Positions 50,269 through 63,252 of a DNA stretch of 64,000 nt are shown piece by piece. The DNA is taken from IMG/VR virus record IMGVR_UViG_3300029288_001872, positions 1 through 64,000 of that record, one strand, 5' to 3'. This DNA is from a virus. Its lineage: Duplodnaviria > Caudoviricetes. The position numbers and the translations under genes were made by a program. The notes beneath the pieces are model-generated. The model ran no database searches and was not told the origin of the DNA. It was given only the letters and a program-made list of their open reading frames with translations. The number at the start of each line of letters is the position of its first letter. Position 1 is the first letter of the stretch.

Positions 50269-51285
50269 CTATGTTCTCACAGGGTAGAAAGTGCCAGTAA
50301 CACTTACAATTCGTTCTGGCGCTACAGTAACTTCAATAATCCAAAATCCCATCGCTGCTGCTATTTTTCTACCGCGCATAAAAGGAGATTGGGATTGCGT
50401 ACATCCAGACTGGATCGCACATACTCCTCTAGTTATAAGCATTTCTGCTTTATGATAGTGGCCCACCACGCATATGTCTGGTTTTTGCCCCGGTGCGATG
50501 GATTCAATGTATTTCTGAATATTATAAGAAATCGCGTAACTAGTACCACCATCTGGATGAAAGAGTCTTATAGTAGCAAGGGCATCACCTTTACCTATTT
50601 TAATATCAGCTTCTTGATGCCCAAGATGGACTAAATCTGGTCTTTCATTGCTAATCATCTTACCAATATCTAACCCGCCATGTTTGTAAAAAGAATAATC
50701 ATGATTACCACGAATAAAATACGTAGTTATACCATCTTTCCTAGGATATCTTTCTCTCACTACATTTACTTGGTTGTCACTTCCTGAAAACTCCAACTCA
50801 AAGTCGTGACCCGCAAACATGCGGATGCCGTCACAAATATCCCCCGAATTCAACACCGTATTTATTTTTTCTTTTTCAAATGTATCATAAGCAAAATTCA
50901 ACAAAGCATAGTCAGAATATAAACTTCCAAAATGGTTATCAGAAACTATGCCAAACTTATGATGTGTTCCTTCCAAACATAAACTAGGCGTCTGTATATG
51001 TCTAGTTAATTCCTGCACTTGTCTTTGCAACTTCTTCACTTGTTCTTCTGCATCAGAAGTTTTTGGTCCAGTTTCTTCTTTTTCTACAACAGGAATTTCA
51101 TCGCCCATCTCAGCCAGATATTTCTTGGCTTCTTCTAGTGCATCTCCCCATTTTCCAAATAAACGATATAGGACTCGTCTAGATGGTTTCTCTGTTTTCA
51201 GAGTGTCGTAAACTACAGCAGAAATAGTTCCTTGTTCCTTGATTATTGAAGCAAACTTTTCAAGTGCTTGATTTTTATCTATCAT
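50269..51285 (-). CDS. Calcineurin-like metallophosphoesterase with an N-terminal HNH-associated-repeat-like domain
   Basis: 'SDNH', 'GDICDG', 'GNHD', 'HPDGG', 'GHYH'; N-terminal 'PS...Y.LFG.W..AL'. Confidence 0.85.
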   Translation of the reverse strand: MIDKNQALEKFASIIKEQGTISAVVYDTLKTEKPSRRVLYRLFGKWGDALEEAKKYLAEMGDEIPVVEKEETGPKTSDAEEQVKKLQRQVQELTRHIQTPSLCLEGTHHKFGIVSDNHFGSLYSDYALLNFAYDTFEKEKINTVLNSGDICDGIRMFAGHDFELEFSGSDNQVNVVRERYPRKDGITTYFIRGNHDYSFYKHGGLDIGKMISNERPDLVHLGHQEADIKIGKGDALATIRLFHPDGGTSYAISYNIQKYIESIAPGQKPDICVVGHYHKAEMLITRGVCAIQSGCTQSQSPFMRGRKIAAAMGFWIIEVTVAPERIVSVTGTFYPVRT

Positions 51286-52264: not shown

Positions 52265-52753
52265 TTATCCTTGGAATATTTCCTTAAATTGTTCTGCTCT
52301 ATCCAAGACATCAGAAGAATAATTTTTATTTGCAGTTCTATTATCAATATTTTCGCCATTGCGGATAACTCTCATCATATTCCCTTCACCACAATTATAT
52401 GCTGCGATTGCTGCTTGTTCAGCTTCCTCTTGATTCATATTATCAAAACCACCATGTTCATTCAGATAATTATATTTGTCTGTCAATATTTTAACACCCA
52501 TCTCTATATTGGTAAATGGGTCTTGCCAATCATGATTAGCTAACCAACTACCAAAACTGCGGTCGTCAATTTGAACTAGACCATGCCCATGACCATTATC
52601 GCCTGTCATATCTGGGTCAAGTATCAAACCAAATCTTGATTCTCTAGAAATGATTGCCGCGATAACTTCTGGCCTCCAATCATATTTCTCAGCAAGTGGT
52701 TTGATGATTGGTGCTAATTCTTTACATAATTCAAATTCTTCTTTTTTAATCAT
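52265..52753 (-). CDS. Endolysin, goose-lysozyme/SLT (GH23) family
   Basis: 'AAIISRESRFG', 'GLVQID', 'AAYNCG'. Confidence 0.85.
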   Translation of the reverse strand: MIKKEEFELCKELAPIIKPLAEKYDWRPEVIAAIISRESRFGLILDPDMTGDNGHGHGLVQIDDRSFGSWLANHDWQDPFTNIEMGVKILTDKYNYLNEHGGFDNMNQEEAEQAAIAAYNCGEGNMMRVIRNGENIDNRTANKNYSSDVLDRAEQFKEIFQG

Positions 52754-52762
52754 AAAGACTCC

Positions 52763-53248
52763 TTAATAATCAACGACTTCGTGCCAAGGAAAAAGTTCTC
52801 CAGGGTCAACTTTACCAGCAGTGCGGTCAGGAATATCTACATGACCAAAAATATCTTCAATCTTATAAACTTCTCCCAAGGCTGTGATCAATTTCCTATT
52901 GGCTTCTATTTGTTCTATTGGCCAATCACTACCATTTCCAACATTTTCAATCCCAATAGAATGAGAATTAACCGTAAGACCATTATAATGTCCTTTGGCA
53001 TGCCATCCTTTAATATTAAATGGAAGTAATTGATAAATAGTTCCATCTTTAGCAATTACAACATGAGCAGATACTTGAGACCGAGATGCACAAAGCCAAG
53101 ATAAAGCACCCTCAAGCGAATTGTCCCCGGTATAATGTTCAACAATAAAAATTGGTGAAATCTCTCCACCATGATTAGGCGATGGTCTATATTCTACTTG
53201 TTCACCATCTATGTAAAGAAAATTATCTTTTACTTCATATCTGGACAT
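52763..53248 (-). CDS. Endolysin, N-acetylmuramoyl-L-alanine amidase (Amidase_2)
   Basis: 'HYTG', 'SAHVVI', 'WHA', 'SIGIE', 'GH', 'KVDPG'. Confidence 0.9.
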   Translation of the reverse strand: MSRYEVKDNFLYIDGEQVEYRPSPNHGGEISPIFIVEHYTGDNSLEGALSWLCASRSQVSAHVVIAKDGTIYQLLPFNIKGWHAKGHYNGLTVNSHSIGIENVGNGSDWPIEQIEANRKLITALGEVYKIEDIFGHVDIPDRTAGKVDPGELFPWHEVVDY

Positions 53249-53471: not shown

Positions 53472-54470
53472 TTAAAATCCCAATGTGATTTGACAGGGAA
53501 ACAATAATTTGTCCCCTTTGCTTAAATTTTCTTCTGCTTTCAATGGTCTTAAATTTTTCAATGCCCATGCTCTCTTAAAATCAGAACTTTCAGCATTTTG
53601 AAAATTAAAAAAATTCAACGGAATGATATGGTCTATGTGCCAATAACTACCATAATTATCCCAACTCATTTCTATTGTAAATTGCTTTTCAAGATGCTTT
53701 TTTAATTTCTTTGCTGTATAACCAACCATTTCTTCCCACTTATGCCAATCTTTTGAACTATTCCTTCTTTTCAAACACTTGCTTATGCCACCTTTTACAG
53801 TTCTATTTAATCTAAGAATTGGATCGGTTTTTGTACATTCTTTACAATAACCCATTTTATGAAATTCTGATGTAGTTTTAGTCTTTTTACATATTGGACA
53901 AGTTTTTAAAGTATCACCTTTTTCAAATCTCTTATCCCTATTCTTCACATTTTCTATACTAGAACATTTTTTACATGCATTTTGTAGAGGATAAAAATCA
54001 ATTTCTTTTTTGATTTTTCCACAAGTTCTACATTTTTTATCTTTATTTGGGTCTGGATCAAATTTGGCTAAAGCCTTCTCTTTTTCTTTTTTTAATTTCT
54101 TTTTAGCACATTCCCTACAATAGTTTATAGTCAAAAAATCACTTAATTTATGATCTTCTTTGCATCTTGCACATTTCCTAATTTCATCTGGATGTTCTTT
54201 GTAATATTTTAATTTTTCTTTTCTCCTTTCTCTTTGTAAAGATAATTGACATTCTTTACACATCACATATTTTGGTTTAAATTGATCTGATTTTTTAACT
54301 ATTCCACAAACACTACATTGTATTTCTTCTAATATATTTGTTGATCTATAATCGCCTCTTTTCTGAGCATTGTGATAACATTCATGTGAACAATATTTAT
54401 GTTCATTACGAATACTAGTTTTAAATTTCTTATCACAAAATAAGCAACTATTAAATTTTGTTTTTCCCAT
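53472..54470 (-). CDS. HNH endonuclease with multiple CxxC repeats
   Basis: 'HLEKQF...MSWDNYG..WHIDHIIP...NLRPL..EENLSKG'. Confidence 0.85.
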   Translation of the reverse strand: MGKTKFNSCLFCDKKFKTSIRNEHKYCSHECYHNAQKRGDYRSTNILEEIQCSVCGIVKKSDQFKPKYVMCKECQLSLQRERRKEKLKYYKEHPDEIRKCARCKEDHKLSDFLTINYCRECAKKKLKKEKEKALAKFDPDPNKDKKCRTCGKIKKEIDFYPLQNACKKCSSIENVKNRDKRFEKGDTLKTCPICKKTKTTSEFHKMGYCKECTKTDPILRLNRTVKGGISKCLKRRNSSKDWHKWEEMVGYTAKKLKKHLEKQFTIEMSWDNYGSYWHIDHIIPLNFFNFQNAESSDFKRAWALKNLRPLKAEENLSKGDKLLFPCQITLGF

Positions 54471-54471
54471 T

Positions 54472-55569
54472 TTATAGCAAGTCCTTTAATAATACCAATT
54501 TTGCTGTATCTCTCGTTACTAAATCATCCCATTTAACTTTTCCAGATTTAATTAATTCAAAACGATTTTTTCCAAGTAAGTCAAGTTTAAATTTATCATT
54601 CCTAGTATTAAACCATTCTCCAAAATTACCTTGAGAAAATCCAACTTCTTCTATCGTTCTCCTCCCTCCTGCACCAATAGAAACTGGAGGTCTTATAGTA
54701 TAAGGTCTGTAAATTTCTTCTAACTCCCCAAAATCTTTGATTCCTAGAGATTCCCAAGACACCAAAACTGGCATCCAAAAGCAGCGTCAACGAGGATGAG
54801 CGGGCAAAGGGGGTTTTGATTCATCCAATCTATATTCACGACCATCACTAACAGCACATCGGAGGCAGCAGCCCGTTCCTTTTCTAATGTTCCCATTTTC
54901 GAGCGTGGAGACCCAACGAACTTTTTTTATAATATCACTATTATTTTGGTAAACACTATCCATTGCATAATTGTTGACTGAAGATACATACGTCCTTGCA
55001 AGTGTCACAGCATCATTCCTTGCCATGTCAAAGCCATTGCTAAGGCGATTTGTAAATTCTGCGTATGATTCGCCTTTCAACATTCCAGTCAACACTTCTT
55101 GTCTTATTTCTTCACTCATTGCGCCATATGTGTCTGTCAACCATCCATTCAATAATTTTCCACCAACTGGTTCATTTATAACTATTGTTCTTAATTGTTC
55201 TGCTGTTAATGTTACACTGTTAAAATTATTAATTCTACCACCAAAACTAACTATATCATTCATTGCCAAAATTGTAGACGCTCCCGCTTCACTGGCAATC
55301 TGCGCTATACCACCTTCTAATACATATCTAATTCCTAAAGTCATTCTATTGAAATTATCAAGAAGTGCTATCGTTCTATCTTCTTGCCAATCCGGTATTT
55401 GTGATCCATATTGGTTTAACTTCGCGAGTAGTTCGTTCTCAGCAGACTTGACCGATTTTAATAAAATCTTGAGCGATTCATCTTCCCAAGAAGATAGATC
55501 GTAGAAATATTCTATACTTCTGGCAAGCAGTATTAATTCTATTGTTTCTTGTTCAGTTAGTTTAGTCAT
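54472..55569 (-). CDS. Head morphogenesis protein (SPP1 gp7 / Mu gpF-like) spanning an in-frame TGA at 54789-54787
   Basis: 'TLART', 'RWVSTL', 'CLRC..SDG..Y', then PPLPAHPR*RCFWMP continuing in frame to 'FGEWF...LLGKNRFEL'. Confidence 0.8.
54757..54776 (-). promoter_or_regulatory. Candidate bacterial SECIS element
   Basis: GGAUGCCA-GUUU-UGGUGUCU starting 11 nt after the UGA; loop starts GU; 3 of 8 pairs are G-U. Confidence 0.45.
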
Positions 55570-58722: not shown

Positions 58723-60339
58723 CTATTTTCCAGGCCCTCTTTTAATTGCGAAAGGCGATCCTACCCCGGCAGGCGACTTTGAAGTATCGGTAGCAACGCT
58801 TGTATACTTTGAAAGGTCAGGAGAACCTATTGACATAGCACCACCAAGAAAATCTTCCTTATCAAACATTGCCATAACTTCTGCCCATTCCCAATCAGCA
58901 TTCAAAATGCCCCTGCGTCTCAATTCTTCAAATACCAATTCTTTAGGCAAAATCTTGAATTGTGCAGCACGAAGCAATACTTCAGCATCCATCGTCTGCA
59001 TCCATCTAAAGTCAGTATTCACATCAACAGACCCACCAGAATTTTCGCCAATATACTTAGAAGTAAATACAAGCAATTGCTCAACAAAATCTTTAAATTC
59101 CAATGCCCAACTTCTTAATGTGCTATCGCTTTCACCAGATGACAATGCTCTTTCAGTAGCAGTCACATTGCCAGTATTAGGCATAAGTAATTGCAAACCG
59201 AACAAAGCCATCTTAGTTTCTAAATCAATCAATTGGGAATGACCAGCATTAATAGCAGCGCCTTGATGTTCTACATATTTAAGTTCTGAGTCTGGATGGT
59301 CAGAATGAATCATTCTATTAGGACCAAGTTCTATTTCGCCTAATTTGTTTGGTTCAGATAATTTCTTGCCAAATAAAATAGGAAGTCTCGTAAAATGCAA
59401 AATATTAGTTTGGTCAGAAGTTGATTGCCAATGAGAAAGATTAAGATAAGCCAAATCTTCCAAAGGAGGTTTAGCAGTCAACGCAGACATTCTTTCTCCT
59501 GGCATAAACACAGCAAGAGGAATTAAATCTTTAATTGAGTTTGTACCAGAATCTATTTTAACCCAATCGCTATTGTCTTTTTGTTTTGTCTTATCTGGTT
59601 CTTCCCACACTTCATATTTCCCAGGTTCAAGCAACCTGATTCTATTAACTTCAACAGTATTATAAGAATTTTCTGGATCATCTTTTTCAAACACTTCTTT
59701 AATTCTTAGTTGAGTAAAAACCTCTTTCCCGTTTCTTCTTTCTGTTTTCCAACCTATAATCGACTCAGTAGGAATATGCACCCAATATGGACGTAAACCT
59801 CTTTTATCTGCTTCGGCCTTAGTCATTGGCCCATCAGTAGGAGGATATTCAGCAAGACAAGTGGTAACACCATCACTTATCCCTCTTGAAAAAACATCTG
59901 CAAGGAATACATCAGCATTGTTGCCTCTTAAATCCATATCTTCTATATAACCATCCTTATTTTTTGTACCACGAATGGCTACTGGAATATCTTCTTTCCA
60001 AGTAATTGGTTTTGAAAATATTTGCCCAGTAAGATATGAAACAGTTCTTCCAAAACCATTAAATAGAATAGTTTTACTTAATCTATTATTATAATTTTCT
60101 GTACTCTCTTTAGGCTCTTTAGGAAGATAAGTAGTGCCTGCTGCAAGCATTGCCTCAGTACCGCCAAGCAAAGTTCTAATTAAATCTAGTCTTGCTTGTT
60201 GTTGGACATAATTATTGCAAGGTTTAGAAATATCTCCTTTTGTACTGGCAGAAGAATCTCCTTTTATATCAATCTGAATCTTCTCCCCCGTGTAAGAGTC
60301 TAATAAAACACGTCCATCGTCATCAATCGCTATTGCCAT
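58723..60339 (-). CDS. Portal protein (DUF4055-like)
   Basis: 'GGTEAM..AG..YLP..PKE...Y..RL', 'RPYW', 'PPL.DLA.LN..HWQ..SDQ..ILH', 'TATE'. Confidence 0.9.
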   Translation of the reverse strand: MAIAIDDDGRVLLDSYTGEKIQIDIKGDSSASTKGDISKPCNNYVQQQARLDLIRTLLGGTEAMLAAGTTYLPKEPKESTENYNNRLSKTILFNGFGRTVSYLTGQIFSKPITWKEDIPVAIRGTKNKDGYIEDMDLRGNNADVFLADVFSRGISDGVTTCLAEYPPTDGPMTKAEADKRGLRPYWVHIPTESIIGWKTERRNGKEVFTQLRIKEVFEKDDPENSYNTVEVNRIRLLEPGKYEVWEEPDKTKQKDNSDWVKIDSGTNSIKDLIPLAVFMPGERMSALTAKPPLEDLAYLNLSHWQSTSDQTNILHFTRLPILFGKKLSEPNKLGEIELGPNRMIHSDHPDSELKYVEHQGAAINAGHSQLIDLETKMALFGLQLLMPNTGNVTATERALSSGESDSTLRSWALEFKDFVEQLLVFTSKYIGENSGGSVDVNTDFRWMQTMDAEVLLRAAQFKILPKELVFEELRRRGILNADWEWAEVMAMFDKEDFLGGAMSIGSPDLSKYTSVATDTSKSPAGVGSPFAIKRGPGK

Positions 60340-62184: not shown

Positions 62185-63252
62185 TTATAGTCCTTGATTA
62201 ATATTTGGTTTATATCTATTTTTAATAACTTGAGACTCATATCTACTTTTCTTATTTTTACTTCTATTTAAGTCATAACACTTTTTACAACAAAATTTTT
62301 TATCATCTATACTTGGTTGAAAGATAGTGCCACATTCTTTACACGGCCTTGGCTCATATTTTTTTACATTACCTTTGTTTTTAGTCGTATTTCCAAAAGG
62401 TCTATTTTTATGAACTTCCTTTCTACATTCTATAGAACAGAAAGTTTGTTTTTGTGAATTACTCCTAGGTTTAAAAGAATTCCCACAACTAGGACAAATT
62501 CTATCTTTTACATTTTTATGCCTAAACAAATCAAAACATTCTTTGGAACAAAATCTTTTCTTCTTCGCTTCATTTGCTGATTTAGGTTCATAAACAATTC
62601 CACAGTGTTCACATGGTCTTGGTTCATATTGCCATGCTTCGACCTTCCCGTTTGTAATTGCTTTTTCTCTAGCTATCCTACTAGTTTTCTCTGTTTCTTC
62701 TTTAGTATGTTTTCTACCATACCAAGGGTGATTTTCCCCGCTTTGTTTTTTGCTCAGATTTTGTCTTCTTTCTTCATCCCAATAATGAGCAAAATTAGAA
62801 TTATTTTCACCCTTATTATCTAATTGTTTTTGTATTTCAGACATCCTCTTTCTATCTTCTTCTGTGTGTTTATAACCAGAACAACCCTCCCCTCCATCAG
62901 TCATATTAGCAAGAATGCCAGTGCCATTGTTTTCTCTACCATAAAAAAGAATCATTTTGTTTTCAATTTCAAATGCCTCCTGTTCTGTAAGGTTATCAAA
63001 TAATATTTCTTCTTCAAAATCGATAAGGTTCTTCCATAAATATATAATTATATTTGTCTTTCTTAAATTTTCAACATAACACTCATTTCCACTTTTTAAA
63101 TATTTAATTGTATAATCACGATGTTGAATAATTCTTTTGTCAAATCCTTTTCCTATATAGAAAGGTTGAGATAACCATACATAAAAAGGGTCATGATTAT
63201 CGGGTCTTCTTAGGATATAAACATAAAATTTTCTTTTATTTTTCTTTGGCAT
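62185..63252 (-). CDS. GIY-YIG-like homing endonuclease with NUMOD3 and Zn-finger repeats
   Basis: 'FYVYIL...PFYIGKG...R', 'ANMTDGGEG', 'HTEE', repeated 'C..CG..F....FCS..C'. Confidence 0.8.
   Translation of the reverse strand: MPKKNKRKFYVYILRRPDNHDPFYVWLSQPFYIGKGFDKRIIQHRDYTIKYLKSGNECYVENLRKTNIIIYLWKNLIDFEEEILFDNLTEQEAFEIENKMILFYGRENNGTGILANMTDGGEGCSGYKHTEEDRKRMSEIQKQLDNKGENNSNFAHYWDEERRQNLSKKQSGENHPWYGRKHTKEETEKTSRIAREKAITNGKVEAWQYEPRPCEHCGIVYEPKSANEAKKKRFCSKECFDLFRHKNVKDRICPSCGNSFKPRSNSQKQTFCSIECRKEVHKNRPFGNTTKNKGNVKKYEPRPCKECGTIFQPSIDDKKFCCKKCYDLNRSKNKKSRYESQVIKNRYKPNINQGL

Follow-up and report, generated by a model that had tools for sequence, protein, structure and literature searches.

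In an uncultured phage, we found a gene for a minor head protein of 365 residues in which the in-frame UGA at codon 261 is probably read as selenocysteine (Sec); on the evidence of the sequences, we put the probability of this reading at roughly 0.78. The window, that is, the whole stretch of 64,000 nucleotides that was analysed, is the first part of a 189,632-bp IMG/VR virus record with a GC content of 34%, which was 100% complete according to CheckV. A selenoprotein interpretation had been put forward in the original prediction, and it is supported by the recurrence of the UGA in further lineages, by the association of a hairpin with the UGA, and by purifying selection on the part of the gene that follows it. 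The known selenoproteins are those of cells and of a few animal viruses, and a selenoprotein built into the particle of a virus of bacteria is the most likely interpretation of the gene described here.

The MuF/SPP1-gp7-like minor head protein gene lies at positions 54472–55569 of the minus strand, as do all of its features given below, and consists of 365 sense codons, including one in-frame TGA, and a TAA stop codon (54472–54474). Translation of this interval confirmed that the two ORFs called in it are a single frame, with the TGA as the sole internal stop. The proposed Sec codon (codon 261, 54787–54789) is placed by the DNA reading CAT CCT CGT TGA CGC TGC (H-P-R-stop-R-C) and by the family alignment on the first Cys of the H-x-x-C-R-C motif, here H258-P-R-U261-R-C263 (54781–54798). 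The original prediction had assigned it to exactly this Cys of H-P-x-C-R-C and had described the upstream CxxC ("CLRC") as intact, and both statements proved correct, the partner knuckle C235-L-R-C238 being located at 54856–54867. Position 261 is occupied by Cys in all 72 full-length relatives; C235, C238, and H258 are likewise invariant in the family, and at least 90% of these relatives have C263. The 104 codons after the TGA (54475–54786) are homologous to the C-terminal part of the full-length relatives but lack a separate start signal. The first ATG in frame is five codons beyond the TGA and lacks a Shine-Dalgarno (SD) core, a signal present in 55% of the phage's genes. Thus, the tail homology and the SD scan agreed with the earlier view that the downstream part continues the family sequence and that its ATG is without an SD.

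The assignment of the 365-codon frame to the gp7/gpF family of head proteins was also upheld. With the TGA read through, the score for PF04233 (Phage_Mu_F) was 30.7 bits against a cut-off of 29.6, whereas the N-terminal ORF alone reached 24.5. The match to PHROG 241 ("head morphogenesis", E = 2.9e-41) covered residues 108–355 and therefore spanned the TGA, and the score for TIGR01641 was 27.7, below its cut-off of 39.65. As an Atlas query, the N-terminal ORF retrieved MuF clusters only. The head module context is given by a portal protein gene (58723–60339, minus strand; PHROG 145, E = 3.3e-108) located 3 kb upstream of the MuF gene. HNH/endonuclease VII-like genes are also present within the module, at 53472–54470 and 62185–63252 (both on the minus strand); the former directly follows the MuF gene and is missing in the syntenic relative L003, and it is therefore probably a homing endonuclease insertion. 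After the head genes, on the same strand, are an amidase/endolysin-like gene (52763–53248), a second lysin-like gene (52265–52753), and a metallophosphoesterase gene (50269–51285).

Elsewhere in this phage, TGA is an ordinary stop codon. It terminates 40 of the 148 long ORFs of the phage record, no other long gene of the phage has an in-frame stop, and taking TGA as a sense codon throughout the genome mostly produced fusions of non-coding frames. A genome-wide screen of the phage for further genes combining a TGA with a hairpin returned none that look coding. The phage has five tRNAs, all of them ordinary; neither a suppressor tRNA nor tRNA-Sec was detected in the record, and genes for SelA, SelB, and SelD were not found in it. 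The examined parts of the relatives' contigs contained no tRNA genes.

Relatives of the protein were collected by a word-indexed search (n = 36) and by an HMM search with the N-terminal 260 residues. Most of the 36 relatives have C-R-C at the site, and three are "truncated" there, their DNA revealing a TGA with the frame going on. The sequence at the site is H-P-R-TGA-R-C in L003/L004 (51% identity), H-Q-Q-TGA-R-C in L005 (38% identity), and H-I-N-C-R-TGA, with the UGA at the second Cys, in L002/L006–L008 (~75% identity, three samples). The HMM search gave 4144 matches; of the 150 top-ranking representatives, nine stop precisely at H-x-x. DNA was obtained for four more of these and for P0139, giving L049, L050/L051, L052, L053, and L065/L066; in each of them, R-C and a homologous tail come after a TGA. 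With the window included, TGA was verified at the DNA level in nine lineages that range from 31 to 80% in identity and from 32 to 60% in GC content; it is found at the first Cys or, in L002/L006–L008, at its partner. The frame continues after the TGA in all nine, with homology to the C-terminus and with no further stops or frameshifts, and in each lineage the annotation shows two separate ORFs. Neither TAA nor TAG occurs in place of the TGA, and the stop is always on one of the two motif Cys codons and never elsewhere in the 365 codons. Three more representatives that end exactly at H-x-x (P0063, P0136, and P0183) are probably additional TGA lineages, judging by the position of their ends.

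Several of the TGA forms were assembled independently from two or three different samples, and the N-terminal ORF ending at the TGA is present in three source collections. P0024 and P0191 are diverged strains that have both kept the TGA, the latter on a 188-kb contig. The exact U-R-C form of the window has no second close copy (a cluster of one member). In viral, metagenome, and genome collections, ~30 further loci have TGY at both positions. Thus, the homologues with TGA at the same column that the original prediction had proposed to search for do exist, and the TGA is not unique although most relatives have TGY. Searches with the C-terminal ORF yielded no new TGA forms; their candidates were an intein-containing gene (L031), a remnant (L032), a Cys form at a contig edge (L034), and one record that has no DNA. 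Among 50,697 GenBank phage records, no relatives of the subfamily were found by DNA, and none by protein at E ≤ 1e-20. A sister jumbo phage (L003, ENA ERZ27247780, 54-kb contig; P0191, 188-kb contig) also has the TGA in its MuF gene and shares the gene order of the window, namely MuF, amidase, SLT-like, and metallophosphoesterase; in L065 the order is terminase, portal, and MuF.

Pairwise dN/dS values were 0.15–0.28 after the TGA/motif and 0.13–0.34 before it, which indicates that purifying selection acts on the C-terminal part in this frame. Downstream of the TGA, neither a conserved restart codon nor an SD core was found across the TGA forms.

Directly 3' of the UGA, the window contains a SECIS-like hairpin, GGAUGCCA-GUUU-UGGUGUCU (54757–54776, minus strand), which has an 8-bp stem and a 4-nt loop with G in the first position. 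The hairpin is separated from the UGA by a 10-nt spacer, and its energy is −7.9 kcal/mol (constrained 60-nt MFE, −11.5). It is the stem-loop of the original prediction, and the details reported then, a loop starting with GU at a spacing of 18 nt from the UGA and three G-U pairs in the stem, were all recovered. The published consensus of bacterial SECIS elements comprises an apical loop of 3–9 nt, an upper stem of 4–16 bp, a distance of 16–37 nt from the UGA to the loop, a G within the first two nucleotides of the loop, and an MFE of at most −7.5 kcal/mol (PMC13188914). The hairpin of the window lies within all of these ranges, while its unconstrained MFE fold is a different one, a competing structure that pairs the UGA itself and that would be melted by a ribosome positioned on the UGA. 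The 48-nt segment after the UGA folds no better than its shuffles in the window (z = −0.09), the other lineages giving values from −0.3 to −2.1; as these whole-segment scores are weak, no thermodynamic significance is claimed.

Comparison of TGA forms with Cys forms revealed an association between the hairpin and the UGA. Eight of the nine TGA forms have a hairpin of the bacterial SECIS type, as against zero of the 20 Cys forms (p = 2.1e-6, Fisher exact test). The eight hairpins have stems of 5–8 bp, spacings of 17–24 nt, and the loops GUUU, GUUA, AGUU, AGUU, GUG, GGU, CGUGA, and GAA; the TGA of L053 has no hairpin, and the hairpin of L052 is weak. The mean energy of the best hairpin was −5.85 kcal/mol in the TGA forms compared with −1.2 kcal/mol in the 20 Cys forms (Mann-Whitney p = 0.0003). 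When the post-UGA hairpin was ranked against all codon positions of its own gene, the combined Fisher p was 1.8e-4; the genes of the window, L003, and L049 contain no stronger G-loop hairpin at SECIS spacing at any other position. When synonymous codons were resampled without altering the protein, eight of the nine TGA forms had p ≤ 0.045 (combined p = 3.4e-6), only 2.5% of the recodings equalling the hairpin in the case of the window, whereas none of the 20 Cys forms had p < 0.05 (combined p = 0.94).

The hairpins of the TGA forms are in different registers (pair sums 47, 56, 57, and 58), and for this reason classical covariation can be counted for one pair of sequences only, L003 and L006, which have a common register with one compensatory pair (G-C to A-U). 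The hairpin geometry of the window, namely a spacer of 10 nt, a stem of 8 bp, and a GUUN loop, recurs identically in L065, which is unrelated (GC content of 60%, tails 31% identical). Conservation of the hairpin, which the original prediction had named as a point to be checked, thus holds for its presence beside the UGA and its absence from the Cys forms, but not for its register, and covariation is limited to the one pair. A search of Rfam returned nothing relevant.

The AlphaFold model of the read-through protein based on 72 sequences had a pLDDT of 88.2 and a pTM of 0.83 (with 10 sequences, the pLDDT was 49). It predicts a long helical bundle (residues 6–208) followed by a small alpha/beta part, in which C235 and C238 are at the start of a helix and H258, U261, and C263 just before a strand. 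The resulting Cys-x2-Cys ... His-x2-Cys-x-Cys arrangement is typical of a metal knuckle and is probably metal-binding, or else redox-active. The PDB gave no match by sequence, and a search by fold (Foldseek, VIA-align) gave only generic helical bundles over residues ~4–260, with the Cys-knuckle and the C-terminal part barely covered. In protein P0031 and at L031:1–1016, the first Cys of H-x-x-C-R-C is directly preceded by an inserted intein (...VVSSN/CRC..., the slash marking the junction). Thus, the residue that is UGA in the window is the +1 nucleophile of the intein in these sequences, and the insertion exactly before this Cys marks it as a key residue.

In SPP1, gp7 is a portal-binding protein of which a few copies are incorporated into the procapsid; it helps infection to start, and virions lacking it are only ~25% infectious (PMC6316719). 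By analogy, the protein of the window may be carried in the virion, and if there are few copies per particle, an inefficient insertion of Sec would be tolerable. MuF domains have a further role as anchors of head-packaged effectors (PMC5512222). Many close MuF relatives have long C-terminal extensions, with matches of 500–3000 aa, for example, the ADP-ribosyltransferase domains PF03496/PF01129 in P0012 and PF07737 in P0028. These extensions fit a role of MuF as a carrier of packaged effectors; the protein of the window has none.

Reconstruction of the TGA state on phylogenetic trees suggested that it arose repeatedly. A tree built from the N-terminal 260 residues (142 rows) requires 11 changes to explain its 12 TGA rows, and at least eight of these changes are forced by supported branches; for the eight TGA rows in the tree of the knuckle plus tail (137 rows), eight changes are required, at least six of which are forced. 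TGA forms are thus scattered over the family tree in these sequence comparisons, and the pattern appears to need at least six to eight independent switches. Such scattering fits the different registers of the hairpins. It also fits the pattern published for bacterial selenoproteins, which are usually rare Sec forms amid widespread Cys homologues and have arisen from Cys ancestors by repeated Cys-to-Sec change (PMC1794560). Still, six to eight independent origins of a UGA together with a hairpin at one codon are a demanding scenario.

The gene is, in addition, a mosaic. Positions 54472–55569 of the window, L001:741–1847, and L006:1564–2658 are ~90% identical over nucleotides 1–630 and 55–65% identical afterwards, and the variable cassettes have U-R-C in the window, C-R-C in L001, and C-R-U in L006. 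A broader interpretation, which we consider tentative and somewhat doubtful, is that MuF/gp7 is a family of phage selenoproteins in which the same metal-ligand or redox Cys was changed to Sec at least six to eight times independently, each time with a new SECIS hairpin. According to it, recombining C-terminal cassettes (U-R-C, C-R-C, and C-R-U in near-identical phages) would match the chemistry of the virion to Sec-competent hosts, and infectivity would depend on the selenium supply of the host.

If the UGA is read as Sec, the hairpin starting 11 nt behind it would act as a bacterial SECIS element. Host SelB, together with GTP and Sec-tRNA(Sec), would bind the apical GU loop and deliver Sec once the UGA reaches the A site of the ribosome, and ribosomes that miss this step would terminate and release a fragment of 260 residues. 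The phage would provide only the cis signals, namely the UGA and the hairpin, with tRNA-Sec, SelA, SelB, and SelD coming from the host. In the protein, Sec would substitute for one ligand of the invariant Cys-x2-Cys ... His-x2-Cys-x-Cys cluster. This would make it a ligand in an apparently structural Cys/His cluster rather than part of a UxxC redox site, which is less typical for Sec. The dependence on SelB, the incorporation of selenium, and the role of the Cys cluster are predicted from these features, and the link between virion assembly and selenium status proposed in the original prediction may follow from them.

Landfill leachate, an anoxic habitat, is the origin of the closest relatives of the window, which were sampled from wells at a municipal site (3300014205 and 3300037067). 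Prophages with a MuF gene in the Cys form are found in Desulfobacterota genomes, one of which has a tRNA-Sec at 85.7 bits, and selenoprotein-rich bacteria are mostly Deltaproteobacteria and Clostridia (PMC1794560). The habitat and these prophages are compatible with a Sec-competent host, but they are not evidence for one. A Cys-form MuF prophage (G001, a Desulfovibrionaceae MAG; L029/L062 and L054) is located in a genome that has the tRNA-Sec mentioned above; thus, Sec-competent hosts also carry Cys forms. The two prophage copies in genome contigs are both Cys forms, the 401 Desulfobacterota genomes gave three matches without a stop at the site, and none of the genomes searched provided a prophage of the TGA form in a named host.

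The explanations that compete with the Sec reading differ in what they make of the UGA. It could be handled without Sec, either through read-through by a near-cognate tRNA (Trp or Cys) helped by the hairpin, as in the A1 protein of phage Qbeta, or through termination and re-initiation that give polypeptides of 260 aa and ~100 aa which then assemble. Hairpins can indeed stimulate read-through, the phage is without Sec machinery of its own, and the stability of the hairpin is unremarkable. Moreover, all nine forms have C or A directly behind the UGA, a weak context for termination, although this base is forced by the Arg codon that follows. Neither route accounts well for a stop that is invariably TGA and invariably on motif Cys codons, and a split inside the H-x-x-C-x-C knuckle, or a Trp there, would destroy an invariant site. 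Re-initiation is further contradicted by the lack of a conserved restart codon or SD, and the hairpins fit a SelB-type geometry, with G in the first two loop positions at 17–24 nt from the UGA. We therefore regard handling of the UGA without Sec as unlikely. A second possibility is that the UGA is recoded in a SECIS-dependent manner but that Cys is inserted, by means of a Sec-like tRNA of the host charged with Cys. Such tRNAs have been proposed for some anaerobes; the same cis signals, a UGA plus a hairpin, would be expected, and the relatives have Cys at the site. As this would be a rare variant of the Sec system, we judge it considerably less probable still.

Pseudogenization, sequencing error, and an altered genetic code are practically excluded. 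In a single genome, one base change from TGY to TGA, whether a nonsense mutation that broke the gene or an error of sequencing or assembly, would give the same picture, and the window's U-R-C form is indeed represented by one copy. Against this very improbable explanation stand the nine TGA lineages with their independent samples, the purifying selection on an uninterrupted tail, the co-occurrence of the hairpin with the TGA, and the identical end of the N-terminal ORF in three source collections. The least probable explanation is an altered genetic code, with TGA read as Trp or Gly by the phage or its host. Recoding of stop codons is known in some large phages, but here TGA serves as a regular terminator, neither a suppressor tRNA nor another interrupted long gene accompanies it, its reading as sense mostly fuses non-coding frames, and the column contains Cys in the relatives rather than Trp or Gly. 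Thus, the probability that does not fall to Sec insertion lies mainly with read-through without Sec or with the Cys-inserting variant.

If the Sec reading is correct, the presence of Sec in a virion protein would mean that phages exploit the recoding machinery of their hosts, and the Sec trait and the supply of selenium could affect both host range and infectivity. The repeated change from Cys to Sec would then represent a natural experiment on the joint origin of a UGA and a SECIS element and on the role of Sec at a Cys/His cluster. Gene callers systematically split such genes into two ORFs. The earlier statement that no phage structural selenoprotein has been described agrees with the literature: a full-text search for phage selenoproteins returned cases from eukaryotic viruses only and no phage-encoded selenoprotein, and phages, prophages, capsid proteins, and PF04233 are all absent from a 2026 review and catalogue of prokaryotic selenoproteins. 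Genes for tRNA-Sec have been noted in huge phages (PMC10747093).

Comparison with known systems demonstrated that the protein shares its domain with Mu F (gp30) and SPP1 gp7 (PF04233, TIGR01641), keeps the CxxC ... H-x-x-C-x-C motif, and is encoded downstream of a portal gene. It differs from them in that one motif Cys codon is a UGA followed by a hairpin; no described member of the family is a selenoprotein, and according to the PDB searches, the subfamily of the window is without a solved structure. The gene resembles bacterial selenoprotein genes with a SECIS element inside the ORF, the prototype of which is formate dehydrogenase H of E. coli, in the alignment of the UGA with Cys and in the hairpin directly 3' of it, and its Sec forms are likewise rare and scattered among Cys forms (PMC1794560). 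In contrast to those genes, it is viral and codes for a predicted virion protein, not a cellular oxidoreductase, and its motif is U-x-C or C-x-U beside a His and a CxxC, not UxxC or CxxU. Among the viruses of eukaryotes, selenoproteins are represented by the glutathione peroxidase homologues of poxviruses. Both those proteins and the one proposed here would borrow the Sec machinery of the host; however, the poxvirus proteins are captured host enzymes with a SECIS element in the 3'-UTR, whereas the phage gene codes for a putative structural protein and has a bacterial-type element within the ORF.
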